Sequence record: OL856099
Length of the DNA: 64,000 nt
Reading direction: 5' to 3' (one strand)
Origin: Shigella phage CWP003
Under the pieces are notes generated by a model. That model searched no databases and had not been told where the DNA came from. It saw only the letters and a list, made by a program, of their open reading frames with translations. This document shows positions 1 through 61,486 of this stretch, piece after piece; the stretch's first letter is position 1, and each line of letters starts with the position of its first letter. The position numbers were made by a program, and so were the translations under genes.

Positions 1-1295
1 ACCAGTTTGACATCAACTTGTCAGACTTCGACAGCATCATCATGAACCAGTACCAGCTTGTGGCCGCAATCGCAAAAGTTCCGTCGACCAAACTGCTTGG
101 GACTTCGCCAAAAGGCTTTAACGCCACTGGTGAATTCGAGATGGTCAGCTATCACGAAGAGTTGGAAACGTGCCAGCAGCATGACCTGACAAAAATTCTC
201 GACCGCCATTACAAAATCCTTCTCAAATCAGAAGGGGTGAATGTCGATGTTAAGGTTGCATGGGAACCAGTTGGCTCACTTACTGCTACTCAACTTGCAG
301 AAATCAATGATAAGCGAGCCAACACTGGCAAAACTCTTATTGATGCTGGCGTCATTTCTCCTGATGAAGAGCGCGACCGCATCAAAGACGACAAAAACAG
401 CGGCTACAACCGTCTGCCGGAAGACGCAGCAGAAGAAACCCCAGGGATGTCTCCAGAGAATATGGCATTGCTTGGCAAGTCTGCTGGTGAAGTCCTGCAA
501 GGTAAGGCCGATATTGAACAGGCGAAAGCTGATGTCGTTAAGATGGGCGGCCAGTTCTATAGCGAAACAGGTATTATGCCAGAGGGTGCCGCGCGTGGTG
601 AGTTGGCGGAAAACCCTGACAAAGCGCCTGTCGAAATCAACATGGACGATACCGATGATGAATCAAGCCATCAGGTTGATGTCCTAACGCAGTTGAAAGA
701 AGGGCTGGAGGGTATTGCGGATTACTACCTGAAAGAAGGTCAGGATGTGGATTTTGACCCTCAAAAAGATTCACGGTCGGTGCAACCGTCTACCCTTCCA
801 AGCGTTAAAGGACACGTCGTCAACTTACGCCACAACGTGGGTAAAATGGACGCAGCATCATTACCTAAGATGAAGTTGCACGGAATGATTCTTGGCATTG
901 AGAATCCGCGAAACAGCATTCGTAGAGGAAACAGCCTTGACGGTGAATGGGCCGTGAAGATGCCGCACCACTACGGATTCATCAAGGGCACCAAGGGCGC
1001 AGACGGTGATGAAGTCGACTGTTTTGTGGGTCCAAATCTTAAGTCGCCGAAAGTCTTTATCGTGAACCAAAACGATAACTACTCTGGCGAGTTTGATGAA
1101 CACAAGTGTATGCTTGGATTCGATTCAGCAGAAGAAGCGAAAGAAGCTTATCAAGCATCATTTGGTAACGGTTGGAACGGATTCGACTCAATCCACGAAT
1201 TAGATGTGAACTCATTCAAGGAGTGGTTGAAGGGTGATTGCTCTCAAGCATACGGAGCACTCAATAATCCTACTAATTCACCGAAGCAAGGTTGA
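1..1295 (+). CDS. portal-like head protein, 5' end outside window, with C-terminal inorganic-pyrophosphatase-like region
   Basis: Frame is open from window edge (no stop upstream of nt 18) to TGA 1293-1295; sits directly upstream of MuF-like gene; C-terminal part contains YGFIKGTKGADGDEVDCFVG, matching the family I pyrophosphatase D-x-D-x-x-D signature. Confidence 0.45.
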   Translation, partial: QFDINLSDFDSIIMNQYQLVAAIAKVPSTKLLGTSPKGFNATGEFEMVSYHEELETCQQHDLTKILDRHYKILLKSEGVNVDVKVAWEPVGSLTATQLAEINDKRANTGKTLIDAGVISPDEERDRIKDDKNSGYNRLPEDAAEETPGMSPENMALLGKSAGEVLQGKADIEQAKADVVKMGGQFYSETGIMPEGAARGELAENPDKAPVEINMDDTDDESSHQVDVLTQLKEGLEGIADYYLKEGQDVDFDPQKDSRSVQPSTLPSVKGHVVNLRHNVGKMDAASLPKMKLHGMILGIENPRNSIRRGNSLDGEWAVKMPHHYGFIKGTKGADGDEVDCFVGPNLKSPKVFIVNQNDNYSGEFDEHKCMLGFDSAEEAKEAYQASFGNGWNGFDSIHELDVNSFKEWLKGDCSQAYGALNNPTNSPKQG

Positions 1296-1296
1296 T

Positions 1297-2148
1297 ATGG
1301 CTTTTAAAGCTTCGAAAAAACGTGAACGCCGCGCACCCGATAGAGTCGGGCGCGGCAGTCCGATAATCCCATCAAACGCTATTGCGATGGCCTACCGTCG
1401 TGAGATGAAAGGTCTTTGCTATGCGATGATTGATGACTATCAGGCAGGAATTTCAGAGTGGCTTGAAAAGAAGCAGGTGCAGAAGTTCTTTGCGCAAGAC
1501 TCTGCTGATTCAACATTCCAAACTCTTATGAAACGTCTGCAGCTGAAATGGGCAAAGGCGTTTGCTCGTGTTGGGTCGAAGATTGCCGCTGATTTTATCA
1601 AGTCGGTTGAAAAGGGGGCTACTTCTGCTACATTCGCCAGCCTTAAGTCCGCAGGCATAGAAGCGCCAAAGGCCACATATAACAAATTCGTTGAGAACAC
1701 TCTTAGAACAAGCGAGACGTTTAACACGACTCTAGTGACTAAGGTCGGCGAGGATATTCACAACAGAGTGTACGAAGCAGTCATGCTTTCGCTGACTTCG
1801 CCCGACCCAGCCCAGCAAGGCACGTCAGGCATTCAGGCGGCGCTGCGAAACGTAAAACACTTCTCTGCAAAGAGAGTCGACTTAATCGCTAAAGACCAGA
1901 CAAGCAAATTGTATTGCGTTCTAAGCGATGAAAGGATGCGCCAGAATGGAGTTGAAGAATTTGAATGGGCGCACTCAGGAGCAGGAAAGGAGCCGCGAAT
2001 CTCTCATGAACATGTCGACGGAATGAGATTCAAACTTGATGACAAGCGTCTATGGGAAGTGGGCGGAGAGTTGAAGTTCAAAAAGGGTGACATCGGTCCT
2101 CCTGGATGGGCGATACACTGCAAGTGCAGAAAAATACCAATCATTTGA
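1297..2148 (+). CDS. phage head morphogenesis protein (Mu F-like / SPP1 gp7-like minor head protein)
   Basis: ATG 4 nt after upstream stop; C-terminal HVDGMRFKLDD...GPPGWAIHCKCR resembles the MuF domain; position after portal-like gene. Confidence 0.6.
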   Translation: MAFKASKKRERRAPDRVGRGSPIIPSNAIAMAYRREMKGLCYAMIDDYQAGISEWLEKKQVQKFFAQDSADSTFQTLMKRLQLKWAKAFARVGSKIAADFIKSVEKGATSATFASLKSAGIEAPKATYNKFVENTLRTSETFNTTLVTKVGEDIHNRVYEAVMLSLTSPDPAQQGTSGIQAALRNVKHFSAKRVDLIAKDQTSKLYCVLSDERMRQNGVEEFEWAHSGAGKEPRISHEHVDGMRFKLDDKRLWEVGGELKFKKGDIGPPGWAIHCKCRKIPII

Positions 2149-2155
2149 GGTCATT

Positions 2156-3076
2156 ATGACGATACCAATCAGCACGTTTCCTCTATCTGGACAAACGCCA
2201 GTATTGCCTGCTGTATATGCTAACGGTTTGGCGATTGTTTCGGAATTCACATCCGATAAAAACCTGATTGTTCCATTGAGTCCGCCATTGGCGTCTGGAT
2301 ACAATTCAGTTGGCCAGTTCTTTATGATCGGTAATGATGGCGATTCTACCAGCAAGCCGAATCTGACACTTTCAGTTCCCAAAATGAACATAACAGACGT
2401 GCAGACTGGTTTAACTGCATCTACGATCACCATCGCTTTTGGAGAAGCAGTGATTATAGGCATGGAGTCTGGAGGGTCCAAGAATGCTGTCGCCGTTAAG
2501 GTAGTCAAATCCAGCAGCAACCAATACACACTACCAGCGGCAACGGCTTCTGTTCTTGGCGGCGTCAAAATAGGAAGTGGCATAAGCGTTGCAGGTGACG
2601 GTACAATTAGTGTGACTCAATACTCATTACCGATTGCATCAGCATCAACCTTGGGTGGCATAAAGGTAGGAACGACACTATCAATTGATGGTTCTGGCGT
2701 CCTTAATGCTGCTGCAAGCACTGTGCAGAACGCAAGCAACAGCGTAAGCAATCCTCCGACAACTCTGGTGAATCTGGCAACCTTAAACCTGCCTGCAGGG
2801 AAATGGCTTGTGACAGCAAGTCAGTTGACTGTCGCGACAGCAGGAGTTCAAGCGAATACCGGAATTACAGTCAAGCTGTCAACAAGTAATTCAGATATTA
2901 CGGATGATGCATTTACAATGTCAGCTGGCATTCGGGCTGCAGGTCGTTTCGGCGGCAATATCCCAACAAAGATAATTACTCTTGCCGCGCCTGGCAACGT
3001 GTATCTAAACTATCAATGCACAGACGCATTGACATCTACCGTTTACGGACAGATCACCGCAATTAAGTTGAACTAA
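2156..3076 (+). CDS. structural protein with internal tandem repeats (fibre-like)
   Basis: ATG at 2156 after GAGG; repeated segment YTLPAATASVLGGVKIGSGISVAGDGTISV / YSLPIASASTLGGIKVGTTLSIDGSGV. Confidence 0.45.
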   Translation: MTIPISTFPLSGQTPVLPAVYANGLAIVSEFTSDKNLIVPLSPPLASGYNSVGQFFMIGNDGDSTSKPNLTLSVPKMNITDVQTGLTASTITIAFGEAVIIGMESGGSKNAVAVKVVKSSSNQYTLPAATASVLGGVKIGSGISVAGDGTISVTQYSLPIASASTLGGIKVGTTLSIDGSGVLNAAASTVQNASNSVSNPPTTLVNLATLNLPAGKWLVTASQLTVATAGVQANTGITVKLSTSNSDITDDAFTMSAGIRAAGRFGGNIPTKIITLAAPGNVYLNYQCTDALTSTVYGQITAIKLN

Positions 3077-3086
3077 AGAGGAAGTT

Positions 3087-3224
3087 ATGCAAAAGATTAT
3101 TCAGTCACGTTACGTTAAAGTGCGAAATATTAATTGCAACTCTTTGCTTTCTTGGAAATGGGCTGTTTACGACTCGATGCTGATTGGCGTTTTAGTTGCT
3201 GGAGTGCTTTTTAATATTCACTGA
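3087..3224 (+). CDS. small membrane protein (45 aa)
   Basis: ATG preceded by AGAGGAAG; hydrophobic C-terminal segment MLIGVLVAGVLF; below the ORF-table size cutoff. Confidence 0.25.
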   Translation: MQKIIQSRYVKVRNINCNSLLSWKWAVYDSMLIGVLVAGVLFNIH

Positions 3225-3270
3225 ATCGCCTGGCAATGGATTGCCGCAGGATTTTACGCGTATAATGACG

Positions 3271-3531
3271 TATCATCCGTATCAAGTAAGTAGTTGTTTT
3301 CAAAAGAATCTTACGGATGATACGGATGATACGCGTTGCCGCGATACTTTATAGGAATTCAAATAAATTAATTTAAAATTATATATCTAATTTAATTTTA
3401 TTTTTTTATAAACTCTTATATATGAAAAGTATCCGTATCATCCGTATCATCCGTAGCACACCAGTGATAGCGCGGCTTATACACTGATACGGATAAAAAT
3501 ACGCCTCATTTTATCCGTATCATCCGTATCA
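3271..3531. repeat. iteron-like array of 9-bp unit ATCCGTATC (both orientations) flanking an AT-rich core at 3355-3425
   Basis: GTATCATCCGTATC 3271-3284; inverted copies 3314-3334; three tandem units 3432-3458; further copies 3488-3496 and 3514-3531. Confidence 0.6.
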
Positions 3532-3588
3532 CACTAATTAAGGCGCGGCTATATCGGTTGTTATACATATTCAAACCATAATTATTGT

Positions 3589-3617
3589 TTGCCTAAGTTT
3601 TTTTCATTAGATATAAT
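3589..3617 (+). promoter_or_regulatory. sigma70-type promoter upstream of scaffold/capsid genes
   Basis: TTGCCT, 17-nt spacer, TATAAT, about 30 nt upstream of start at 3647. Confidence 0.45.
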
Positions 3618-3646
3618 ACACAATACTTATTTGAGGGTGGATGCGA

Positions 3647-5059
3647 ATGCAAACGGCACGCGAAATTGACAAAAATGGATTCTTGACGATTGTGGGTTGT
3701 CCCATTTCGTCATTTGGCATTTTTGATTATTCTGCAGGTCAGGTTGGACTTGATGGTGATCCGAATCGCATCGTAAAAGTTTATCGCCCAGAGTCAGCGG
3801 TGAAAGACCCCGAAGCGATAGATTCATTCAAAAATATCCCTTTCATCGACAATCACGAAATGCTTTCTGGATTCGAAGGTGATGAGGATAACACAGCACC
3901 CGAAGAGTATGGCGTTGATGGCGTTCTAACTGGCAATGTTTATTATGACAAGCCATGGATGCGCGGCGACCTTAAAGTTTTTAGCCGTCGTCTGAAGAAA
4001 GCCATCGATTCTGGAAAGGTTGACTTGTCTTTGGGCTATGACTGTGAATTCATCATACAGTCTGGAGAGTTTGACGGGCAGCCGTATGAAGTGGTACAGA
4101 CAACTCTTCGCGGCAACCACATTGCTCTCGTGGACGTTGGTCGAGTACCAGGTGCACGGGTGCTGGATGGTCGTTGCTTTGACCATCTTTGTTTGACGAC
4201 TGTAACACCATCCAACGAGGATTTAGACATGCCAAAACCGTTAAAAGGTAAAGCGCGTGATAATGCTGTTGAACAGCTGAAATCACTGATCCCTGCGCTC
4301 GAACAATTTCTGAATGAAGAGAGCACCGAAGCTGCTCATCAGGACGAAGTTGAAGTGAAAGCAGAAGAGAAGGATTCAACCGAAGAACGTGAAGAAGTGA
4401 TGGTTGATCCAGAAGTTAAAGCAGAAGCTGAAGAGACTCCAGAAGGTGAAGAGAAGTTTGAAGTTGAATCTGAATCTCACGCTGGCGGCGAGCTTCCGCA
4501 ACTGATCAGCCAAATCGAAGCACTTATTGCAAAACTGAAAGGTGGCGCGGTAGGTGATGAAGAAGAAGTTGAAGCCGAAGTCAAAGACGAAGAAGTTGAA
4601 GTCAAGGCTGAAGATGTATCACCTTGCGACAAAGCTGAAGATGTGGTTAGCGGCCTGCAAAACAGCAACGTAAAGGGGGCTTCGGTCGAAAAAGATGACA
4701 AACCGACAAAAGCGGCGAAAGCGTCGCCAGGTCCAGCAAAAGGGGAACACTCAATGGCATCTGATTCAGCAGTTGCTGCTTTCTACGCTGATTCTGCTCG
4801 TAAGAATAGCCTCTACCAGCGCCTGTCTAAAGTTGTTGGTGCCTTTGATCATGCAACTATGGACTCCAAGTCCGTAGCGAAATATGGCGCTAAAAAGTTA
4901 GGCTTGAAGTGCGTTGATGGTGCTGAGTTTGACGTGGTGGATAATTATCTGCGCGGCGTTGAACACGGTCAAAAACAGCGTGTAGTCGCAAAACAAAAGG
5001 CCGCTGCGGATTCTGCAGCAACTGACGAAGCATTTGAAGCTTGGTTGAAAGGGGAATAA
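3647..5059 (+). CDS. scaffolding / prohead protease-like protein with acidic E/V/K-rich repeat region
   Basis: GAGGGTGG RBS 6 nt before ATG 3647 (alternative ATG 3641); long acidic low-complexity stretch typical of scaffolds; position before capsid gene. Confidence 0.5.
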   Translation: MQTAREIDKNGFLTIVGCPISSFGIFDYSAGQVGLDGDPNRIVKVYRPESAVKDPEAIDSFKNIPFIDNHEMLSGFEGDEDNTAPEEYGVDGVLTGNVYYDKPWMRGDLKVFSRRLKKAIDSGKVDLSLGYDCEFIIQSGEFDGQPYEVVQTTLRGNHIALVDVGRVPGARVLDGRCFDHLCLTTVTPSNEDLDMPKPLKGKARDNAVEQLKSLIPALEQFLNEESTEAAHQDEVEVKAEEKDSTEEREEVMVDPEVKAEAEETPEGEEKFEVESESHAGGELPQLISQIEALIAKLKGGAVGDEEEVEAEVKDEEVEVKAEDVSPCDKAEDVVSGLQNSNVKGASVEKDDKPTKAAKASPGPAKGEHSMASDSAVAAFYADSARKNSLYQRLSKVVGAFDHATMDSKSVAKYGAKKLGLKCVDGAEFDVVDNYLRGVEHGQKQRVVAKQKAAADSAATDEAFEAWLKGE

Positions 5060-5061
5060 AT

Positions 5062-5679
5062 ATGACTTTCCAAACTAGTGTAGGCCGTCAATATACAACT
5101 GGCTTTCCTGGCGACATCGTTCGCGACGGCCCACAGCGTGGGAAGCCAGGTCGAATCGTTAGCGCCAACGACGGTGCAAACGTAAACGCCATCAGCCGTG
5201 TGTTTGGTTTTAAAGCTGACGTATCTTTAATGGGTACTGGCCAAACCAAAACTTTGGGCGCGCAGGACTTTGAAGTTGAGCTGGGCGGCACCAACTACTA
5301 CGGCATCCTCGGCAATAGCAAGCGTTATGCGCTGTATGGCAACTCTACTGGTCCTTTGGGCGCCAGCATGGTTCTGCCTCAATATAGCGAAGGCGAGTTC
5401 TACGATATGTGCACGGGCCTCGTAGTTGAAGTATTCAACCCTGGCACCAGTCCGCAGACGCTGAACTACGGCGACCTGCTCGCTTATGTACCTAAAGGCA
5501 TCTCAAGCGTGAACAACCCGAACAACTTGCCTATCGGTGCAATTATCGCCTATACTGGCTCACTGCCAACTGGCATGGTTGCCATTCCAGGCGGTATCGT
5601 GATTGACCCGACTGCTATTGCCCTTTCCGGCCCAAGCGTCCAGTCTTCCACTTATACCATTGTACAATTGACTCGTTAA
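5062..5679 (+). CDS. capsid-associated hypothetical protein
   Basis: AAGGGG RBS; lies between scaffold and major capsid genes. Confidence 0.4.
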   Translation: MTFQTSVGRQYTTGFPGDIVRDGPQRGKPGRIVSANDGANVNAISRVFGFKADVSLMGTGQTKTLGAQDFEVELGGTNYYGILGNSKRYALYGNSTGPLGASMVLPQYSEGEFYDMCTGLVVEVFNPGTSPQTLNYGDLLAYVPKGISSVNNPNNLPIGAIIAYTGSLPTGMVAIPGGIVIDPTAIALSGPSVQSSTYTIVQLTR

Positions 5680-5693
5680 TAGGCAGGTGAATA

Positions 5694-6833
5694 ATGACTC
5701 GCATTAGCCAAACACACTCTCGCCTCCCAGCGAGCAAGGTGCGCCCTTTTGATATGCAATCCGTTACCGACGCGGCTGTTTCCCAGCTTGCTCGTATCGG
5801 TATTGTGTTTGATTCCGCGATTGTGCGTGATCAGATTGAGCACTTAAACCGTGCAGGCGCTTTCCGCGTAGGTGACGCCGCGTTTACCGCGCCGCAGACC
5901 ACGCCATCAATCCCGACCCCGCTGCAGTTCCTGCAACAGTGGCTGCCTGGCTTCGTCAAAATCATGACCGCTGCCCGTAAAATTGACGAGCTGGTTGGTA
6001 TTGACACCGTTGGTCAGTGGGAAGATGCAGAAATCGTTCAGGGCATCGTTGAACCAGCTGGCACCGCAGTTGAATATGGTGATTTCACCTCTATTCCTCT
6101 GGCAAGTTGGAACGTGAACTTTGAACGTCGTTCCATCGTTCGCGGTGAAATGGGCATGGCAGTCGGCATGCTGGAAGAAGGCCGCGCGTCTGCGATGCGT
6201 CTGAACTCCGCAGAGACCAAGCGCCAGCAGGCTGCTGTATCTCTGGAAATCATGCGTAACGCAATCGGCTTCTATGGTTGGTACAACGGGAACAACCGCA
6301 CGTTCGGCTTCCTGAATGATCCAAACCTGCCAGCGGCGATGACTTCAAACACCACTTCCGGCTGGGCTACTGCGACCTTCCAACAGGTGACTGCAGACAT
6401 CCGTTTGATGGTCCGTCAAATTCGTGTAAACTCTCAGGATCAGATTGATCCAGAGAAGGTTGACATGACTCTGGCGTTGCCGACCAACTCTATTGATTGG
6501 CTGTCAAACACCACCGACTTCGGTATTTCTGTACGTGACTGGATCACCCAGACTTATCCGAAGATGAAGATCAAATCTGCACCGGAACTCAACGGCGCAC
6601 TTGGCAGTGACCCGACTTTCCTGAACGTGGCATATCTGTATGCTGATCACATCGATTCCTCGATTGATGGCTCAAGCGATGATGGTTCCGTATTCAGTCA
6701 GCTGGTCCAGACTAAGTTCATGACTCTGGGCGTTGAGAAACGTGCTAAGAGCTACGTTGAAGACTACGCAAACGCAACAGCAGGCGTTCTGCTCAAGCGT
6801 CCTTTCGCAGTCGTCCGTATGACTGGTATCTAA
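5694..6833 (+). CDS. putative major capsid protein
   Basis: AGGTGA RBS; 379 aa; position after scaffold; stable hairpin directly downstream. Confidence 0.5.
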
Positions 6834-6858
6834 TTGCTGTGATTACACAGTAAAACAC

Positions 6859-6888
6859 ATGGGGCGTGGTCGAAAGGCTTCGCCCCAT
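6859..6888 (+). terminator. GC-rich hairpin after capsid gene (terminator or transcript-stabilising element)
   Basis: ATGGGGCG...CGCCCCAT stem; no clear U-tract. Confidence 0.3.
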
Positions 6889-6948
6889 ATCAATAGACCT
6901 CAAGGGCTGTAGGGGCTTATCTGAGGCTTATATAAATAGGACTACAAA

Positions 6949-7413
6949 ATGCCAAAATACATCGTTTCAACTATGTCTATGTCAGTCAACTACACTTTCT
7001 ATACGGAAGTGAAAGAAAACCCGAACGCAAAAGCTGGTTCAGGCGCGCTTCCAAATATTCGCAAACAGATTCTGATTAAGGGCGGCGCTGGTCTTACTTC
7101 GGCAACTTCCGGCTTTGGTGAAATGGCAAAAGGCGCTGATGGGGCACCTTTGTGGACTCCTGAAGGAATCGTCACCGTTGTAAGCGATGCTGATTTTGAA
7201 CATCTAAAAGATCATCACGTATTCAAGCAGCACCTTGAAAAAGGTCTGGTTAAAGTGGTTAACCACGACATCGTTGGCAATCACAAAGCTGTTGCTAAAG
7301 AAGTGCGCAGCATGTCAGATGACCCGTTCGCACCTATGACGCGTGAAACTGCTGACAAGCGCATCAAGGTTAAATTGAGCGGCGAACAAGAAAATGATTT
7401 GTTCCGCGTTTAA
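6949..7413 (+). CDS. hypothetical head protein
   Basis: ORF in structural operon. Confidence 0.45.
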   Translation: MPKYIVSTMSMSVNYTFYTEVKENPNAKAGSGALPNIRKQILIKGGAGLTSATSGFGEMAKGADGAPLWTPEGIVTVVSDADFEHLKDHHVFKQHLEKGLVKVVNHDIVGNHKAVAKEVRSMSDDPFAPMTRETADKRIKVKLSGEQENDLFRV

Positions 7414-7427
7414 ATAAGGTGAATGCC

Positions 7428-7883
7428 ATGTCATTAGATTACGAAAAGTTCAGAATAAAATTTCCACAGTTTGCTGATCAGGTAAAATTCCCTGACACAA
7501 CGCTTCAAGTATTCTATGACATGGCATGTGAATTTATTGAATCACAAGACAGTCCTTGTCGTGTTTTAAATGGCAGTAAATTGGAGCTGGCATTGGAATA
7601 TATGACGGCTCATCTTTTATGCATAGCCACAGACCAACAGGTGTCTGTGTCTTCTGGTGACGGAGTTGAACAAGGCGGCTTCGTGACTGGTGCAACAATC
7701 GGTGACATCACCGTGAATAAGGTAGCGCCGCCAGCAAGTGATGGTTGGGAATACTGGCTTTCAAGCACTCCTTATGGCATGGCGCTTTGGGCGTTTCTGC
7801 AAGCACTGGCTGTCGGCGGCTTGTCGTTTGGCGGTCTTCCAGAGCGCGAAGGATTTCGTAAAATTGGTGGGGTATTCTGGTGA
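7428..7883 (+). CDS. hypothetical head-tail joining protein
   Basis: AAGGTGA RBS before ATG 7428 (table ORF starts at GTG 7419). Confidence 0.45.
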   Translation: MSLDYEKFRIKFPQFADQVKFPDTTLQVFYDMACEFIESQDSPCRVLNGSKLELALEYMTAHLLCIATDQQVSVSSGDGVEQGGFVTGATIGDITVNKVAPPASDGWEYWLSSTPYGMALWAFLQALAVGGLSFGGLPEREGFRKIGGVFW

Positions 7884-8266
7884 GGATTCCTGGCGTAAAC
7901 TTATATCGAGTTGCGACAAAGGTCATCGGTCGCCAACCGATTCAATATTACATGTACAAGGGGCGCACTCTTGATAAAATGCGCAACTACGTTACAACTT
8001 ATGAAGAACCAATCACGCTACTTGCTTCGGTGCAGGCTGTTCTTCGAAATCAATACGTCGAGCTTGGATTAGAGCTTCAAAAGAACTATGTCAAAATCTG
8101 GGTAGACAAAGACATTGTTGACCTTGACCGCGATGCTTCCGGCGACTATTTTGTGTTTGGTGGGAAAACGTATAAAATGGAAGATGAAACGACATGGTTT
8201 GACCAAGATGGTTGGACGTCTTGCCTTGCCGTGGAAGTAAAACAAAGCTTTCCAGTGTCTACTTGA
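7880..8266 (+). CDS. hypothetical head-tail joining protein
   Basis: GTG start overlapping upstream stop; GGTGGGG RBS. Confidence 0.45.
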   Translation: MRIPGVNLYRVATKVIGRQPIQYYMYKGRTLDKMRNYVTTYEEPITLLASVQAVLRNQYVELGLELQKNYVKIWVDKDIVDLDRDASGDYFVFGGKTYKMEDETTWFDQDGWTSCLAVEVKQSFPVST

Positions 8267-8267
8267 G

Positions 8268-8849
8268 GTGCATATGACAGATGTCGACCTGATTGACATG
8301 CTGGCAACGAGAATTGAAGAAGGTCTGGCGGCGTATAGTCGTGCAGACCTTTCTGCTGTTCCGGTCCAGAAAAAGTATCAACCGACTCAACAGGGCATTC
8401 CGACTGGTGATCAAATTTGGTTTAACCTTTTATTCTCAGTTCCTTTTGGATGGTCCATGAGGAAAAGTGAATTTGTCAATGATGAGTCTCAATTCGTAAA
8501 CGGCAAATTTAAAGATATTGAAGATCAGATATACGCAACACGTTTTCAAATCAGCGGCTTATTTCCAGAAGTTCCTGGCAATCCAGAAAAGCCTACTGCT
8601 AATGACGTGTTGACTTATTTGGCAAGATTCATAACTCATAAAGCTAATCTGAGAGATTGGTTCAAAAAGCATCAGGCATCAGTATATCGAATCGACATGA
8701 ATAATAATGAAAAGTTTTATGATGACATGTCACAATTCGAATCATTCCCTTCTTTTGATTTAGTAATACTTCACAGAAACGCAATTTCAATTGATACTCC
8801 TGCAGTGGCAAGAGCTGTTAATAATGATTTGGGTGACGTTCCGGTGTAA
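8268..8849 (+). CDS. hypothetical structural protein
   Basis: ORF tightly packed in structural operon. Confidence 0.45.
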   Translation: MHMTDVDLIDMLATRIEEGLAAYSRADLSAVPVQKKYQPTQQGIPTGDQIWFNLLFSVPFGWSMRKSEFVNDESQFVNGKFKDIEDQIYATRFQISGLFPEVPGNPEKPTANDVLTYLARFITHKANLRDWFKKHQASVYRIDMNNNEKFYDDMSQFESFPSFDLVILHRNAISIDTPAVARAVNNDLGDVPV

Positions 8850-8850
8850 T

Positions 8851-9336
8851 ATGACAAAATCAAAAATGATAGAAAAACAGATTAAGGCACTTCAATCTAT
8901 GAAGGGTCTTACTGTTGAGGCAGGATGGTTTGATTCTACCAGATACCCTTCAGAAACTGGTGGAGAAGGCATGCTGGTGTCAGAAGTCGCGCGGCTTAAC
9001 GAGTTTGGTCACATAGCCGTTTTGAACTTTGGACAAGGCCCAGTCAGGGTAGAAGTGCCACCCAGACCATTCATGAGATATGCCTATGAATTATTCGTTA
9101 GTGAGCGCAGTGAAATAGAGAATAAAATTGCTAAAAAGATTTTTTCCGGTAAAATAGACGCTAGACAGGCATTGGGTCAAATTGGGCTTGCGATGGAAGC
9201 AAAGATTGTCGAATCAATTAAAAACGGACCGTGGCAACCAAACGCCAGATATACTGTACGTGTGAAGGGATTCGACAAGCCTTTGATTCACACTAGCCTC
9301 ATGTGGCAATCTGTCAGCAGCCAAGTCATTAAATAA
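8851..9336 (+). CDS. hypothetical structural protein
   Basis: ATG 2 nt after upstream stop; table ORF 8791 starts inside upstream gene. Confidence 0.45.
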   Translation: MTKSKMIEKQIKALQSMKGLTVEAGWFDSTRYPSETGGEGMLVSEVARLNEFGHIAVLNFGQGPVRVEVPPRPFMRYAYELFVSERSEIENKIAKKIFSGKIDARQALGQIGLAMEAKIVESIKNGPWQPNARYTVRVKGFDKPLIHTSLMWQSVSSQVIK

Positions 9337-9348
9337 GAGGACACCGAC

Positions 9349-10887
9349 GTGATCAGTCAATCTCGTTATATTAAAATTGTATCAGGGGTCGGAGCAGGCG
9401 CGGCTGTTGCAGTTCGCAAACTGTCGCTTCGCGTCATGACTTCTAATACAGTTCTGCCGCCAGGCATTGTAGCAGAATTTTCAACGGCTGATGCTGTTGG
9501 ATCATATTTCGGTTATTCTTCCGAAGAATATAAGCGCGCAGCATTATATTTTGGATTCATCAGCAAGCAAATTAACTCGCCTGATTCAATCAGCTTCTCG
9601 CGTATTGTTTCAACTGCGATTCCAGCAATGGTCATCGGTGATACTGAGCCTAAAGTGCTTGCTACGTTCCAAGCATTCACTGGCGCTATTTTAAGCATCA
9701 CTTATGATGGCACAGACTACCTGACTGACGCAATTAACCTTTCAGCAGCAACAAGTCTGGCGAATGTGGCTGAACTTCTGGAAACGGCAATCAATACTAA
9801 ATTTGCAGCAGAAGGGGGCACGTCGGTGCCTGCACTTGCTGATGCAGAAGTGTATTGGAACGCTAATACTCAGCAGTTCACGCTGGAAGCAGCGCCGTCG
9901 ACCGCTGGCGCAGGCAATCTGTCTATCAACGTCACAGGCCAACCGACCGACCCGTCTCAAGCATTAGGTTGGACCACCACTGGCACCGTAACCGTTGCAG
10001 GCCAGGGCGTTTCAAGTCCGGTAGAAGCCATCGCGGCATCTGTGGAAATCTCCAACAACTTTGGCTCATTCCTTTTTGCTGGGGCTGACCGAACTCTGGA
10101 AGAAATTACCGCTGTGGCAGCGTGGACTCATTCGCAGAATAATATGTACATGTATTTATTCTCGACTTCGTTCGCTAATATCGGGTCATACTACACCGCT
10201 CTGAAAGGGTACTCAGGCGTTGGCATGATGATTCGCGCAACTAACCTTGCAAACGATTACATCGACCAAGCACCTGCTGAAATCCTCGCGGCGACAAACT
10301 ATAATACTGTGAATGCGACTCAAAACTACATGTATTATCAGTTTGATACTCGCAACGTGACTGTTTCAACTGACTCTCGTGCAGACACTGCTGATCAAAA
10401 CCGTGCTAACTACATCGGTGCAACTCAGCAGGCCGGACAAACCTTGGCATTCTTCCAGCGCGGCGTATTGATGGGCGGGTCTACCGCAGCAGTTGACATG
10501 AATACTTATGCCAACGAGATGTGGCTTAAATCTGCTATCACTTCTCAGCTGTTCAGCATGTTCTTGAATCTTGGTCGCGTGCCTGCAAACGAAGAAGGTA
10601 AAGCGACTGTACAAGCAATGATTCAAGTTGCTGTTGACAATGCGAAGGTTAACGGCACCATCTCTGTTGGCAAGGCGCTGACTGAGATTCAGAAACAATA
10701 CATCACGCAAACTTCCGGTGACAGCACTGCTTGGCGGCAGGTTGAAACTATCGGTTACTGGCTGACTGTAGATTTTGATACTGAAACCACTTCCGATGGG
10801 CGCACCGAATACTATGCAACATACACGCTAATCTACTCTAAAGATGATGCTGTGCGTCGCGTTGAAGGTCGTGACGTCCTTATCTAA
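9349..10887 (+). CDS. tail sheath protein
   Basis: GTG start after AAGAGGA; 512 aa; followed by tube gene; resemblance to sheath family recalled from memory, not searched. Confidence 0.55.
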   Translation: MISQSRYIKIVSGVGAGAAVAVRKLSLRVMTSNTVLPPGIVAEFSTADAVGSYFGYSSEEYKRAALYFGFISKQINSPDSISFSRIVSTAIPAMVIGDTEPKVLATFQAFTGAILSITYDGTDYLTDAINLSAATSLANVAELLETAINTKFAAEGGTSVPALADAEVYWNANTQQFTLEAAPSTAGAGNLSINVTGQPTDPSQALGWTTTGTVTVAGQGVSSPVEAIAASVEISNNFGSFLFAGADRTLEEITAVAAWTHSQNNMYMYLFSTSFANIGSYYTALKGYSGVGMMIRATNLANDYIDQAPAEILAATNYNTVNATQNYMYYQFDTRNVTVSTDSRADTADQNRANYIGATQQAGQTLAFFQRGVLMGGSTAAVDMNTYANEMWLKSAITSQLFSMFLNLGRVPANEEGKATVQAMIQVAVDNAKVNGTISVGKALTEIQKQYITQTSGDSTAWRQVETIGYWLTVDFDTETTSDGRTEYYATYTLIYSKDDAVRRVEGRDVLI

Positions 10888-25988: not shown

Positions 25989-26070
25989 TATAATTCACCT
26001 TTTGATTATGAATATTAATAGTATAGGCTTAAGGTTTTGAAAGTAAATACGCCGAAAGTAAATAAAAGAA

Positions 26071-55580: not shown

Positions 55581-55937
55581 GATACGCGTAAAATACGGCT
55601 AAAAATTAAGCGTATCATGGCTGCAGGCCGCGCCGTTCCTGGATTCCTCTTTTCCAAATTGGTACACCCTTACGTCATGATACGTCATGGTTTTTTATCC
55701 GTATCAGTGTACAGCCCTTGCCGCGCCTGGCTTGTACATTAATCTTACGGATGATACGGATAAAACTGGGCATCGTTATATATATAATTTGAAAAATTAA
55801 TTAACTCCATTTTGAATTAATTTAAATTAATTTTTTTCTACATCCTCATACTTATGTTAATTTATATATAACGTATTATCCGTAAGATATAAGTAAAAAC
55901 AAAGACTTGCGGCAATACGGATGATACGTCATGATAC
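55581..55937. repeat. second iteron-like array (GATACGGAT / ATCCGTATC units, GTCATGATACGTCATG variants) around an AT-rich core at 55770-55870
   Basis: CTTACGGATGATACGGATAAAAC 55744-55766 and TTTATCCGTATCA 55696-55708 closely match segments of the 3271-3531 array; AT-rich core shares ATTAATTTAAA(T)TA. Confidence 0.6.
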
Positions 55938-56103
55938 GCTTCAACCAGCCAGTAGCGGCTAAGTCATTGATTTGCATAACAAGCGGCGAAAGGGATGGAC
56001 TTCTTTTATACGTATCAAACAGTACACCACGCACCACGGTCCGATATTCATTCAGCACTATGATTTATGTACGTTTACAGCCAATTTGAACATCAATCTG
56101 CAC

Positions 56104-56132
56104 TTGAATATAATGTTCAATCATTATATAAT
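56104..56132 (+). promoter_or_regulatory. sigma70-type promoter for gene 56167
   Basis: TTGAAT-17-TATAAT. Confidence 0.45.
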
Positions 56133-56144
56133 TCACACTATTAA

Positions 56145-56168
56145 TTTGCACTATGGGATTTGCACTAT
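56145..56168 (+). promoter_or_regulatory. two tandem TTTGCACTAT motifs between -10 element and start codon (operator-like)
   Basis: copies at 56145-56154 and 56159-56168, the second overlapping ATG 56167. Confidence 0.45.
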
Positions 56169-56640
56169 GAGTCAAGATTATGTAGCAATGCCTGAAGACT
56201 TTGAAGACCCGCGATTTGCAGAGCATAATCAGGCATTATTCGATGAGTTCATCGACCTTGTTATTCAGGGCCATGACATGCGCGCAGCTTTTGCACTAGT
56301 ATTTGGCATGGAGGTTGCGACCGATAACTACACTGGCCAGCGAATCCTGTGCACTCAGCGCAATCCGTACTACAAGATGCGCTACAAAAAGCGTATGGAA
56401 GAGATGCCATTGAAGGAATTGTGGAGCGTAAAGAGTTCCATTCACAATTTAGTGAAGCTTGTGCGTGATCCAGAAGTCGCAGCATCAGCCAAGCTTAATG
56501 CCATTCGTGAACTGAATATCATCTACGGCATTACGATGATTGATGAAAACGGCAATAGTAAAATGGGCCGTTCCATGGATGATTTCTACAAGGATTTTGG
56601 AGAGGCGGCCAAAGAGGGTGAGCAATTCTCCCGCCACTAG
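56167..56640 (+). CDS. hypothetical protein (157 aa)
   Basis: ATG at 56167 within table ORF 55972-56640; GGGA 8 nt upstream; promoter at 56104. Confidence 0.45.
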   Translation: MSQDYVAMPEDFEDPRFAEHNQALFDEFIDLVIQGHDMRAAFALVFGMEVATDNYTGQRILCTQRNPYYKMRYKKRMEEMPLKELWSVKSSIHNLVKLVRDPEVAASAKLNAIRELNIIYGITMIDENGNSKMGRSMDDFYKDFGEAAKEGEQFSRH

Positions 56641-56644
56641 CCAA

Positions 56645-57038
56645 TTTGCACTATAAAACGGCCCTAGAACACATTTTCTCCACTTCTAGGGCCATCGGTA
56701 ATACGACGGGGAAGGCTGCAACCATAAACGCGTTAGAAAGTGTATTATTATAAGTCATCTTTTAGTCACTTTACGTAACAATTTACGACCTTCCGCCGTC
56801 CAGTCGAACGACTCCACCAGCAAATTTGCACTATAACCTAAGACGATGCGCCCTTTCTCGTTATCTACCCGCCAACAAGTCTCAAATAGCATTCGATTTG
56901 CACTATTAACTATCGCCGCAACGCGCGTTGGGTAAGCGCAATTTGCACTATGGTCATAAAGGGATAAGGTGCGACCACTTCCGATGGACAACGTAGCGAT
57001 GAGAATAAGCGTATTCATAAGCCACCAATTTGCACTAT
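56645..57038. repeat. array of five (A)ATTTGCACTAT motifs in about 400 bp
   Basis: copies at 56645, 56825, 56897, 56942, 57029; variants at 57334, 57344, 57613. Confidence 0.6.
56660..56693 (+). terminator. perfect 10-bp stem hairpin after gene 56167 (terminator or RNA element)
   Basis: GGCCCTAGAA, 14-nt loop, TTCTAGGGCC; no U-tract. Confidence 0.35.
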
Positions 57039-57039
57039 G

Positions 57040-57061
57040 AAAAGCGACCCCGAAGGGCCGC
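57040..57061 (-). terminator. rho-independent terminator for minus-strand gene 57069-57695
   Basis: on minus strand GCGGCCC-UUCG-GGGUCGC hairpin followed by UUUU. Confidence 0.5.
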
Positions 57062-57068
57062 CATTCGA

Positions 57069-57695
57069 TTAGATAATCTGGAAGGTGTAGGACTTGTTGC
57101 CGAACTCGAAGTTCAAGCGTCCCGCTTCTTTAAGCTTCATGCGGAAGCGAATGTGCTTGCTATCCGGTAAGCCCAGCGCGGCGAACGCTACGCGGACTGA
57201 TTTGAACTCGCCTACACCCTCGACCATAACGGCGTTACGGGTGAGACGCTTTTGCGCCACTTCCTTGTTATCCCAACTTTTTGCAATACCTTCGCTATTC
57301 GAACGGCGATGGGAAGGAGTTCCATTTTGCACTACGCAACTTGCACTATCGTTTAGGCCGCTTTTAACGAAGGCTTCATACTCTTCGTCGGTCATCGCGT
57401 CGAGTTCTTCCTGGGTCGGCTCGGCCTTTTTGACGACCGCACGCGCCTTATGCGTTTTTACATCGCTGGACACTTCCTCGCGCGGCTTCGCGTCTGGGAT
57501 GGGCGATTCGTTGGACGGCTCATCGAGCGCGTTTAAGGACTCGATTAACGCGATTACGCGAGTCTCGGCGGTCCGGCGGTCCGCAAACTTCTTAATCGGT
57601 TTTGAGCCGGAATTTGCATTATAGAATGCAACGAGGTCGGCGGTCTTAGTTGCGATAACGTCGCCGCTAGTAGAAAAGCGATTTAAGCTAACCAT
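57069..57695 (-). CDS. hypothetical protein (island gene)
   Basis: AGGAG RBS 8 nt before ATG; CpG-rich codon usage distinct from rest of window. Confidence 0.5.
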   Translation of the reverse strand: MVSLNRFSTSGDVIATKTADLVAFYNANSGSKPIKKFADRRTAETRVIALIESLNALDEPSNESPIPDAKPREEVSSDVKTHKARAVVKKAEPTQEELDAMTDEEYEAFVKSGLNDSASCVVQNGTPSHRRSNSEGIAKSWDNKEVAQKRLTRNAVMVEGVGEFKSVRVAFAALGLPDSKHIRFRMKLKEAGRLNFEFGNKSYTFQII

Positions 57696-57775
57696 AATAA
57701 ACTCCTATTTGTTAGGGCGCTAGGCGCGAAAGAATTTTATTAAAGCGCCGCGCACGACGCTCTAAAAATCCTCTC

Positions 57776-58090
57776 TTACTCTTCGTCGTCTTCGATTAAT
57801 TCGAGGGCGAAGGCGTAAGCTTTGCTATCGTAATTAACTAAAACGGCGAGTTCGAACTCGTTAATAAACGCCGTTTTACCGCATAAATTTAATTCCGCAT
57901 CGACTTCGAAGAATCCGTTTTCGTCGCGCTCTAAGCGAGAAGCAGCGAGTTGCTCGATTACCGTCGCGTCGTTAATTTCTTCGCCTAAGCGAACGCCGGA
58001 GAATTTCGCGAGAATTTCGCCGTAAGTAAGCGTAACGCCCTGGACTTCGGCGGTTGCGTTTTCGAGGGTAAAGCGGGTAACGATAGCCAT
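57776..58090 (-). CDS. small acidic protein (island gene)
   Basis: AGGAG RBS; 104 aa, Asp/Glu-rich; own sigma70-type promoter. Confidence 0.5.
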   Translation of the reverse strand: MAIVTRFTLENATAEVQGVTLTYGEILAKFSGVRLGEEINDATVIEQLAASRLERDENGFFEVDAELNLCGKTAFINEFELAVLVNYDSKAYAFALELIEDDEE

Positions 58091-58158
58091 AACAAACTCC
58101 TAGTTGGGAGAGGCGTTAACGACCTATTCGTTAACTCATCCCGTCCCGATATGAGTAC

Positions 58159-58186
58159 ATTATAATATAGTGTAGAAAAAAGTAAA
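58159..58186 (-). promoter_or_regulatory. sigma70-type promoter (minus strand) for 57776 gene
   Basis: reverse complement reads GTGCTTTACT-16-TATAAT. Confidence 0.5.
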
Positions 58187-58230
58187 GCACTTTTTCGATA
58201 AAAATGCGATAAATTATTTTATCTTTTTTC

Positions 58231-58258
58231 TTTACTTCTTCGTACACTCGCGTATACT
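58231..58258 (+). promoter_or_regulatory. sigma70-type promoter for 58315 gene
   Basis: TTTACT-16-TATACT within CTTTACTTCTTCGTACACT box. Confidence 0.5.
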
Positions 58259-58314
58259 TGTTTATATCGAGACGGGCGATGGCCCTTTCTTCTACTAGCA
58301 TCGGGAGCTTTATT

Positions 58315-58617
58315 ATGACTACTTTAATCTCTTCCATCCTTACTTACGACGAAGACCGCTTAACCGTTCGCTCTCTTATCGCCGCCGTTAACGCGGAACT
58401 CGAAACTAGCATTATTAAAGCGCGCGCCGTCGCCTTCGTCGGCCTTTCCTTCGACGATATTAAGTATGCAGAGTATAGCGCCATTCGCGTCGTTACTACC
58501 GACGATAACGCCGTTACCCTTATCGAGACGGTTACGCCTCGCGGCGAAGCGTTAATTATCGTCGAGTATATCGACGTAGAAGGCGATAAAGCTTATAAAT
58601 ATTTTATCGCAGAATAA
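58315..58617 (+). CDS. small acidic protein (island gene)
   Basis: GGGAG RBS 7 nt before ATG 58315; 100 aa. Confidence 0.5.
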   Translation: MTTLISSILTYDEDRLTVRSLIAAVNAELETSIIKARAVAFVGLSFDDIKYAEYSAIRVVTTDDNAVTLIETVTPRGEALIIVEYIDVEGDKAYKYFIAE

Positions 58618-58629
58618 CGAAAAAAGTGC

Positions 58630-58658
58630 TTTACTTCTTCGTACACTAAGACTATAAT
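58630..58658 (+). promoter_or_regulatory. sigma70-type promoter for 58726 gene
   Basis: TTTACT-17-TATAAT in same CTTTACTTCTTCGTACACT box; conserved leader TTTATATCGAGA. Confidence 0.55.
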
Positions 58659-58725
58659 GTTTTATATCGAGAGGGGATGAGGTAGCGAATAGGTCGCTAC
58701 CCTCCCGACTAACTAGGAGAATATT

Positions 58726-59016
58726 ATGATTACTTTAGCCGCTATCCGTTCCGCTCGCGTCGAAACTTCCGAAAACTCTAACGTATTTGGCGAAAAACTT
58801 AAAAACGTTTATCTCTTTAACGTAGATGCGACTATCGAAGAGCTTCATAGTCCTATCGATTTTAGCGAATTTACGGAACTCGAAGAGGAAGATATTACTA
58901 CCTTCCGCGTTACTATCGAAGGTAAGGTTTATTTTGCTACGGAGTTCGGCGGCGAATATCTCGCGGTATCCGAAGGCGAAGGCCGTTACTCTTTCTTTAA
59001 AATCGTCTCCTTATAA
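58726..59016 (+). CDS. small acidic protein (island gene)
   Basis: AGGAG RBS; 96 aa, Glu-rich; terminator downstream. Confidence 0.5.
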   Translation: MITLAAIRSARVETSENSNVFGEKLKNVYLFNVDATIEELHSPIDFSEFTELEEEDITTFRVTIEGKVYFATEFGGEYLAVSEGEGRYSFFKIVSL

Positions 59017-59035
59017 TACCCTTCCGTTACTAATA

Positions 59036-59060
59036 GGCCGCGCTTAGTCGCGGCTTTTCT
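59036..59060 (+). terminator. rho-independent terminator
   Basis: GCCGCG-CTTAGT-CGCGGC hairpin followed by TTTT. Confidence 0.5.
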
Positions 59061-59531
59061 TCGTCCCTATCTCGATGCGCTTCTCCGCGAAAACTCCTTT
59101 ATCCTTCCCTTCTTCGTCGCATAATCTTCGTCGAGATGCGCCTTAGTTCGCATAACAGGTATTACGTTAAATGGAGAACATCGCGTAAGTCCTTGTTTTA
59201 TATAGACACCTATATCGGACCGTTAGGGAGGGTCGCGTAAGTCGTTGTTTTATAAAGGCGCAAAACTTTCCCTTCGTTCCGAACTAAAACGAGAAATATG
59301 CCGACCCTTCGCCCGAAAATAGTACGCGTGCGAAATTACCGACATCTAGAATAATCCCCACCGATATTATCCTGCGCGCAATCATTCGCTTTCGAATCAT
59401 TATGCTTCATATTATTATGCGTCGAATCATTAGCTTTCGAATTGTAACGCTGGAAACTGTAACGGCGATTGATTATTGCGTTCGTGTGGTTTTTAGGGCA
59501 TGGGTCTTTTGGTGCGTTTTGGTACTTGATG

Positions 59532-59644
59532 AAATTTGCAGTACACTAATCAAAATACGACACATTTGGTCCACTAACTTTTCAAAGAAAAAGTCCTAGA
59601 CAGTACCGTACTATTTTGTGCCCACAGTAAATTTGCAGTACACT
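59532..59644. repeat. pair of perfect 16-bp direct repeats AAATTTGCAGTACACT
   Basis: copies at 59532-59547 and 59629-59644; related to the TTTGCACTAT family. Confidence 0.55.
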
Positions 59645-61412: not shown

Positions 61413-61486
61413 CTCACTTGTTAACGTATAATGAGTATAACTTAATAGCGCATAAAGTAAAGGCGCTTTTCAGCGCCTTGAGTGAA

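Follow-up and report, generated by a model that had tools for sequence, protein, structure and literature searches.

A probable early-gene block nearly emptied of the CA/TG step at the end of the terminal repeat in a Wifcevirus

In a 64,000-nucleotide stretch of Shigella phage CWP003 (sequence record OL856099; hereafter, the window), we studied the island at positions 57040-59520 and found that a probable early-gene block at the end of the terminal repeat is nearly emptied of one base-pair step, CA/TG, over two kb. Avoidance of CA:TG may make the first-acting DNA of this phage hard for DNA-cutting systems to recognise. The window belongs to a Wifcevirus, a PB1-like Escherichia coli myophage: the 2,481 bases of the island presented 99.5% identity to Wifcevirus WFH and at least 90% identity to 28 Escherichia phage records.

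At the compositional level, we computed a symmetrised CA/TG odds ratio in 600-nt windows. An earlier reading of the letters alone (the original prediction) had described a compositionally distinct island, and the signal is stronger than it stated: the ratio falls to 0.15 inside, against 1.19 ± 0.10 outside the island, where the minimum was 0.90. The purged zone spans 57300-59400 with its core at 57500-59100, and displays odds ratios of 0.15-0.35 and 0-7 TG plus CA per 100 nt (vs. 14.3). Counted per 300 nt, the core holds 4-12 of these steps and the rest of the window 44 ± 5. A weaker gradient begins at about 56650, and normal composition is regained by about 59450. CpG and TpA move the other way, with odds ratios of 2.0-2.3 inside vs. 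1.09 outside for CpG and of 1.1-1.5 vs. 0.66 for TpA. The island is the compositionally unique region of the window.

The genes had been predicted to be CpG-rich and to use unusual leucine codons. CpG is raised, but it is not the primary signal, since it follows from the avoidance of CA:TG. We recoded the same proteins in a simulation with the genome's own codon usage, with or without a penalty of e^-2 per TG or CA. Without the penalty, 83 TG and 64 CA are expected, vs. 20 and 21 in the real island genes. With it, the simulation gave 143 CG, 99 TA, and 15.5 TCGA, close to the real 161, 96, and 20. The TG/CA penalty alone thus reproduces the real CG, TA, TCGA, CGCG, and TTAA counts, and for this reason we regard the CpG richness and the odd codons as by-products of CA:TG avoidance; the enrichment of TpA, TCGA, and CTAG and the depleted amino acids are read in the same way. 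The CpG gain is concentrated at codon junctions, as NNC-GNN. The codon-usage comparison confirmed the leucine bias: the island uses TTA 15, CTC 13, CTT 8, TTG 1, and CTG 1 times, and the rest of the window TTG 174, CTG 188, and CTT 262 times (chi-square p = 8e-16). The three acidic proteins of the island, when pooled, contain 1 His, 2 Gln, 1 Cys, no Trp, and no internal Met; these losses match the amino acids with obligate TG or CA codons, so the purge reaches the protein level.

The avoidance acts on duplex DNA. On a given strand, TG is depleted as much as CA, and the same is seen in genes of both orientations. All TG- or CA-containing tri- and tetranucleotides are depleted in the island, in all eight TG/CA contexts. 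Depletion affects codon phases 1-2, 2-3, and 3-1, the junctions between codons being no less depleted than the codons themselves (6 TG and 4 CA at the 3-1 junctions of 300 codons). It is still two- to threefold past the terminator, in DNA that is probably untranscribed, and where promoters of this type occur outside the island, the genes that follow them show a normal TG/CA density (14.4-14.6 per 100 nt). It is because of this strand symmetry, the depletion at junctions and past the terminator, and the normal genes elsewhere that we point to the duplex; the signal argues against explanations at the level of mRNA, codons, or a single strand.

Other origins of the signal were considered and discarded. 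CpG enrichment as the primary signal was rejected because the CA/TG penalty reproduces it and the amino-acid losses fit obligate TG/CA codons. Biased T:G repair or deamination, as a mutational source of the signal, was rejected by reasoning: such repair would lower TpA, yet CG and TA both rise, as codon-constrained avoidance predicts. A single longer motif hidden behind the dinucleotide was not retained either; ACTG, CTGA, TGAA, and CAAG are the most depleted words, but they are also the cheapest to avoid when coding. DNA hypermodification was set aside, as the annotations of relatives list no modification genes and the thymidylate synthase counterpart of Pbunavirus E217 is of ThyX type. Besides, GATC shows a small extra avoidance beyond CA:TG, with 1 site in 55809-59509 vs. 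5.6 expected and none in the island, where the recoding simulation predicts 4-5 within the genes.

The island is the right two thirds of a direct terminal repeat of 3,701 bp (55809-59509) and stops at the repeat boundary. The left and right copies are identical over 1-3701 in WFH, and both the WFH ends and the repeat of phage Mansfield map to this place in the window. The Mansfield counterpart of the island falls inside a direct terminal repeat of 3,673 bp (1-3673) predicted by PhageTerm, and the published repeats of WFC and WFH are about 3.7 kb. Since the island adjoins one repeat boundary, one of its copies lies within a few hundred bases of a physical end of the virion DNA. The repeat also contains the small terminase subunit gene (56167-56640, plus strand; so annotated in Mansfield, and phrog_4783), which is normal in CA:TG content.

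The four open reading frames (ORFs) that the original prediction had placed in the island were all found there: g208 (57069-57695) and g104 (57776-58090) on the minus strand, and g100 (58315-58617) and g96 (58726-59016) on the plus strand. Their products had been described as small and acidic, which holds for three of them, of 104 (isoelectric point, pI, 4.07; net charge -15), 100 (pI 4.39), and 96 (pI 4.40) amino acids, with net charges from -8 to -15; the fourth, g208, is a basic protein of 208 amino acids (pI 8.9) of the phrog_4730 family. The three proposed TTTACT-16/17-TATA(A/C)T promoters are present, at 58159-58186 (minus), 58231-58258 (plus), and 58630-58658 (plus), in a window where TTTACT-N16/17-TATAMT has 5 matches vs. 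0.02 expected. They are near-identical, although the AAGTGC part of the box that they were said to share occurs in only two of the three. The leader proposed for both plus-strand genes, TTTATATCGAGA, was also found.

Promoter and leader together form a cassette of about 130 nt that occurs three times, once inverted. The g104 cassette (58088-58219, minus strand) has an UP-like A/T tract and TTTACT-16-TATAAT, and is an inverted repeat of the g96 cassette (58597-58725, plus strand; TTTACT-17-TATAAT); the g100 cassette (58202-58314, plus strand) has TTTACT-16-TATACT and the leader TTTATATCGAGACGGG. The leftward unit reads promoter, leader, g104, g208, and an intrinsic terminator (57040-57065, minus strand), a GC hairpin with a T-run (-18 kcal/mol, z = -3.6) annotated in WFH. 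On the right, promoter-g100 and promoter-g96 are followed by an intrinsic terminator (59035-59056, plus strand) that is annotated in WFH and Mansfield. The result is two divergent units with promoters of sigma-70 type, as judged from their consensus, and two intrinsic terminators. The module looks immediate-early because of these promoters, its leader hairpins and terminators, its place in the terminal repeat, and its divergent T5-like units; the immediate-early genes of the original prediction are supported in this way, by a layout like that of T5/BF23. Two further TTTACT-N16-TATACT promoters lie outside the repeat (26020-26047 and 61434-61461, both minus strand), and the genes behind them are normal in CA:TG.

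When scanning 78 related loci for CA:TG-poor zones, we found them only in Wifcevirus, in Serratia Myosmarvirus (SMP, MyoSmar, and MTx), and in Pantoea phage Kyle. The zones of these three genera cover 1.7-2.2 kb of terminal repeats that measure 3.56-3.7 kb; their odds ratios, taken in 600-nt windows, reach minima of 0.15-0.29, and in Wifcevirus, MyoSmar, MTx, and Kyle they stop at most 200 nt from one repeat boundary. The small island proteins of the three genera have mostly diverged past BLAST recognition, and the Myosmarvirus island holds a second, purged copy of a g208-type gene. In the complete Bas98 genome, the purged zone is unique. Pbunavirus E217 showed nothing comparable in the 62 of 66 kb examined. 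One publication in which Pbunavirus is mentioned describes such Pseudomonas phages, 65 kb in size, as circularly permuted, which would leave Pbunavirus-type phages with no fixed leading end.

Selection against CA:TG in duplex DNA is continuing. Seven Wifcevirus islands with 87-98% identity, which include g96 alleles of about 60-65% protein identity and a g96 paralogue replacing g104, each contain 115-139 TG plus CA per 2.3-2.5 kb. Among transition polymorphisms of the core, 36% switch a CA:TG step vs. 47% of the possible transitions, and where a site is polymorphic, the allele with TG/CA is in the minority 28 times and in the majority 10 times. Both figures indicate a per-site selection that is weak but persistent.

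The island had been suggested to be an insertion marked by TTTGCA(C/G)TA-family motifs on both sides. The motifs are real, but instead of a flanking pair they form at least seven direct iterons on one side and two variants on the other. Together with this one-sided array, the presence of g208 in the core gene set of all PB1-like phages, the constant position of the block at the repeat boundary of three genera, and the lack of any integrase or transposase among the island ORFs and in the family searches contradict an insertion. The shared boundary indicates an ancestral module instead and, as judged from these genome comparisons, the island is a selected module that was already present in the ancestor of the enterobacterial branch and goes with fixed genome ends.

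The closest known arrangement is that of T5 and BF23, whose repeat carries two pre-early units of opposite orientation and, at its border, non-coding DNA rich in repeats (PMC10644984). As in those phages, the presumed early genes of Wifcevirus lie within a long direct terminal repeat, in two inversely oriented units with strong host-type promoters. A repeat-rich non-coding inner border (59060-59509) lies where T5 and BF23 have their injection-stop region, with no sequence similarity to T5 iss. The border comprises about 450 nt and two families of direct repeats, a 25-nt one present twice at 59181-59257 and a 43-nt one present twice at 59364-59451. The Wifcevirus repeat is shorter (3.7 kb vs. 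about 10 kb), no homologues of A1, A2, or dmp were found, and two-step transfer, which is known for T5, is conjectural here. The dinucleotide signatures also differ. A single step, CA:TG, is depleted four- to eightfold and in only two thirds of the Wifcevirus repeat, whereas in T5 (NC_005859) AG/CT and GA/TC are depleted about 1.3-fold: the T5 repeat (1-10219) compared to the next 10 kb showed 0.79 vs. 1.12 for AG/CT, 0.80 vs. 0.98 for GA/TC, 1.31 vs. 0.74 for CG, and 1.52 vs. 1.09 for GC. We regard the island as a variation on the T5-type protected leading repeat, with an unusually extreme sequence signature.

The likeness may extend to restriction. Tequintaviruses resist Type I and Type II restriction unless active sites sit in the repeat of the first-step transfer (PMC10644984), the T5 rule. 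The Wifceviruses of the BASEL study resist EcoKI, EcoCFT_I, EcoRI, EcoRV, and EcoCFT_II despite 5-93 sites per genome and are sensitive to EcoP1_I only, though its number of sites is similar to that of EcoCFT_II; that study found it puzzling that phages with no known genome protection resist restriction (PMC11990801). Our site counts match the published numbers (AGACC 82, EcoKI 5, EcoRI 18 palindromes, CACAG 93). In the terminal repeats of Bas98-101, AGACC occurs 5-7 times, with sites in both orientations, and CACAG 0-1 times, where about 5 would be expected; EcoRI and EcoRV sites are missing, and there are 0-1 EcoKI sites. AGACC is kept in the repeat and the other sites are gone or nearly so, as the T5 rule predicts, and the CACAG-type sites were removed because of the CA:TG avoidance. 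As in T5/BF23, a broad insensitivity despite many sites seems to go together with a sensitivity that tracks the sites in the repeat; the restriction phenotypes fit, as a correlation, a rule by which sites in the terminal repeat alone count. As a minor observation, the A-run that lies upstream of the g96 promoter differs by one base in Bas99 and Bas101, which creates a single EcoKI site (AAC-N6-GTGC) at repeat positions 2781 and 2811; both isolates are nevertheless reported as EcoKI-resistant.

On this basis we tentatively favour, at somewhat less than an even chance, that the island is an immediate-early, pre-early-like module of a fixed-end phage whose DNA is stealthed by its own sequence. 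The three strong sigma-70 cassettes would drive two divergent units read by the host RNA polymerase, and the island DNA, like the first-step-transfer DNA of T5, would have to work in the cell at a time when the protective early proteins are still to come or are just being produced. Its protection would be built into its own sequence, through avoidance of a step required by some activity that targets DNA. Candidates are host nucleases of the restriction type, as suggested by the vanishing of CAG-type Type III sites, and an attack on host DNA by the phage itself in the pre-early phase. The early proteins might then shield the remaining genome, which is normal in composition and has many restriction sites.

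Several points weigh against this stealth reading. With about 40 TG/CA left per kb of strand pair, the core would not escape a nuclease that recognises the dinucleotide alone, and we know of no host or phage activity with CA:TG specificity. The left third of the repeat, with terS, is not purged, though it would enter early too. Of the 64 six-base palindromes, 45 are missing from the island, and ordinary windows of equal length miss 43.5 ± 3.7. The gain in other absent words is modest (66 vs. 31 ± 6 5-mers and 945 vs. 758 ± 26 non-palindromic 6-mers); a CA:TG purge is a poor general anti-restriction strategy. The related idea of a generic reduction of vocabulary against all restriction enzymes was weakened by the same palindromes, which are no rarer than in ordinary windows. 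The correlation with restriction rests on two informative enzymes, and CACAG is taken as the EcoCFT_II site on the support of its count of 93. Homologues of T5 A1 and A2 were not found, the direct comparison being A2 against g208. Early timing, the order of DNA entry, an entry pause, and a protective role of the proteins are parts of the scheme that we infer. Moreover, T5-like phages are resistant to EcoPI even when their repeat contains active sites (PMC10644984), unlike the EcoP1I-sensitive Wifceviruses.

Among the alternatives, self-immunity is one that we hold unlikely. A pre-early nuclease or DNA-binding shut-off factor of the phage, possibly g208, would attack host DNA at sites with CA:TG at a time when the repeat is all that has entered the cell; the module would have been purged to survive, and the rest of the genome would enter, or gain protection, later. 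A duplex-level, symmetric signal at the genome end is what this reading calls for, and g208 is basic, with a possible SAP-like nucleic-acid-binding domain. T5 offers a parallel, since it degrades host DNA during the first-step transfer while the escape of its own DNA is unexplained (PMC10644984), and its repeat differs in dinucleotide signature; the latent period reported for Wifcevirus is, in addition, very short (PMC11990801). However, the scan of five proteins encoded in the repeat revealed no nuclease domain, g208 homologues are also present in Pbunavirus without a purged zone, and two-step entry is presupposed. The residual TG/CA would still be hit unless the motif were longer, and no longer motif is fully absent beyond the coding cost. 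We give a smaller chance to replication or recombination, in which the zone would be a desert of primase starts (E. coli DnaG uses CTG) that leaves the lagging strand unprimed near the end, with a long 3' single-stranded repeat tail free to anneal or invade and form concatemers. The zone does sit at the end of fixed-end genomes and is absent in Pbunavirus, described as headful-packaging. CAG/CTG is among the most depleted trinucleotides (4 observed vs. 54 expected in the core of the window's zone, and 0.16 of expectation across three genera), and weak per-site selection suits a trait of the rate type. Yet purging one strand would do for this purpose, and TG and CA are equally depleted on each strand, in all eight contexts rather than in one trinucleotide. 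The phage encodes its own primases, which may not use CTG, and the cost at the amino-acid level seems excessive.

An explanation through RNA or translation appears more doubtful still. Early mRNAs would shun UG and CA to dodge an endoribonuclease or toxin, to avoid internal NUG starts, or to suit an altered tRNA pool. All bacterial start codons are NTG and MazF-type toxins cut ACA; besides, depletion is strongest in coding sequence, and the proteins contain hardly any of the amino acids whose codons must include TG or CA. Against it, UG and CA are both depleted in the sense strand of genes of both orientations, the codon junctions are as depleted as the codons, depletion continues past the terminator, and genes with the same promoter type elsewhere are normal. 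The least probable case, for which we see very little chance, is the view drawn from the original prediction, a foreign island inserted between TTTGCA(C/G)TA repeats, with the composition of its donor and encoding anti-restriction proteins that mimic DNA. The sharp difference in composition from the rest of the genome, the acidic proteins, the resistance of these phages to restriction by no known mechanism, and the small genes swapped and lost among isolates would agree with it. Nevertheless, g208 belongs to the core genes throughout the clade, its family counting 828 clusters at 50% identity, the repeat boundary is the same in three genera whose small proteins are mostly past BLAST recognition, the composition is kept in divergent alleles, the motifs are a direct iteron array, and the proteins resemble neither Ocr, nor ArdA, nor any solved structure. 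To our knowledge, there is no donor with a CA:TG odds ratio near 0.2.

The proposed stealthed early module can also be set beside other phages. At the leading end of T7, strong host promoters drive the small acidic anti-restriction gene 0.3 (Ocr) early, and the island resembles it, going partly by annotation, in its strong host promoters and in small acidic proteins presumably made while most of the genome is still unexposed. The island proteins are unlike Ocr in sequence and fold, the leading region of T7 has neither a CA:TG anomaly nor a dinucleotide signature of its own, and the T7 terminal repeat is 160 bp long and gene-free. The host-takeover module of SPO1 lies in a 13-kb terminal redundancy and, going by annotation and general knowledge, likewise groups many small early genes with their own strong host promoters inside a terminal repeat; host and phage family are different, and the SPO1 repeat has no distinct dinucleotide composition. 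As in the avoidance of restriction sites by phage genomes, selection strips short DNA words, but here the word is a dinucleotide step rather than a palindrome of 4-6 bp, the effect is local (2 kb) rather than genome-wide, and six-base palindromes are no rarer than in ordinary windows.

A four- to eightfold purge of one base-pair step lies far outside normal genome signatures and is kept in three genera. The literature searches made for it found no paper describing a CA:TG purge, and papers on vB_Eco4M-7 and on intercalator defence are silent on this region. The purge points to a CA:TG reader yet to be described, whether enterobacterial or encoded by the phages. It also offers a testable answer to the puzzle of the BASEL study (PMC11990801), which would be the T5 rule that only sites in the terminal repeat count. 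More speculatively, the CA:TG step could be a so far undescribed way of telling self from non-self in unmodified DNA. An enterobacterial defence, or a pre-early weapon of the phage against the host chromosome, would depend on this step, and the first-acting DNA would evade it through composition alone. Terminal stealth zones could then be general in fixed-end phages with a naked leading segment, the T5 repeat with its weaker signature being a second example; we consider this rather improbable. The likely toolkit genes of a fast-growing phage group are of interest for therapy and engineering, and genomes of this genus have been assembled in vitro (PMC11074155).

At the protein level, the four genes and the triplicated promoter-leader cassette are likely a host-takeover or anti-defence toolkit. 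Pfam, PHROGs, PADLOC, and PDB sequence searches assigned no function to the island proteins, and database searches gave no known family for the acidic ones, which have homologues only in these phages. They form one loose family with three subfamilies (g96 vs. its Mansfield paralogue, E = 1e-7; g104 vs. a Kyle protein, E = 1e-4). The model of g96 (pLDDT 73, a monomer of medium confidence) is alpha+beta with a C-terminal four-stranded sheet; it had no significant PDB neighbour, and a viral library returned itself and one weak match. The acidic proteins are as small and strongly acidic as mimics of the Ocr/ArdA type and presumably expressed early, but sequence and fold searches gave no link to Ocr, ArdA, T5 A2, or known defence-related families, so that DNA mimicry is possible but unsupported. 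In g100, His, Gln, Cys, and Trp are all missing and the start is the sole Met.

For g208, a first homologue search returned near-identical proteins only, and a search clustered at 50% identity revealed the family, with homologues in Pbunavirus, Serratia, Pantoea, Xanthomonas, and other phages. The protein has a possible SAP/Rho_N-like N-terminal domain, which would be of the helix-extended-helix, nucleic-acid-binding type, followed by a conserved alpha/beta C-terminal domain.

The g104 and g96 leaders (58088-58152, minus strand, and 58664-58728, plus strand) fold in the 5' untranslated region into an 8-bp hairpin with the loop GAAUAGGUC (58121-58129, minus strand, and 58687-58695, plus strand). 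The leader of a Myosmarvirus island gene carries the same loop on another stem (10716-10738), and the loop rides on three different, fully complementary lower stems. The Rfam and tRNA scans of the region were empty, with no Rfam match for the hairpin, which may be a protein-binding or mRNA-stabilising element.

Regarding the iterons, seven exact copies of ATTTGCACTAT lie on the plus strand at 56143-57040. They surround and follow the small terminase gene in the third of the repeat that is not purged, and there is no exact copy elsewhere in the 64 kb. Degenerate copies are found inside g208 (57338-57351 and 57611-57624), and the variant AAATTTGCAGTACACT at 59532-59547 and 59629-59644, 23 and 120 nt beyond the repeat end. 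The iterons and their variants are candidate terminase or origin binding sites. At the left repeat end (55809), inverted repeats of the words TGATACGGATAA and TTATCCGTA span 55693-55898 and may be part of the terminase cutting site.

Two long ORFs, at 57094-57624 (plus strand; 176 amino acids, antisense to g208) and 58131-58337 (minus strand; 68 amino acids, across the divergent promoters), seem artefacts, although part of the latter is annotated as a gene in some relatives; both look like by-products of the skewed composition rather than genes.

Finally, the gene content of the module varies among isolates. The g96 protein evolves fast, with 58-70% identity across most Wifcevirus records, and g104 is found in 10 of 28 Wifcevirus records, with a homologue in Pantoea phage Kyle. 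ECML-117 is devoid of g104 and has the cassette leader fused straight to g208 (about 7960). In phages of the Mansfield type, a g96 paralogue stands in for g104 (1971-2255 in Mansfield), and the module thus appears plastic.

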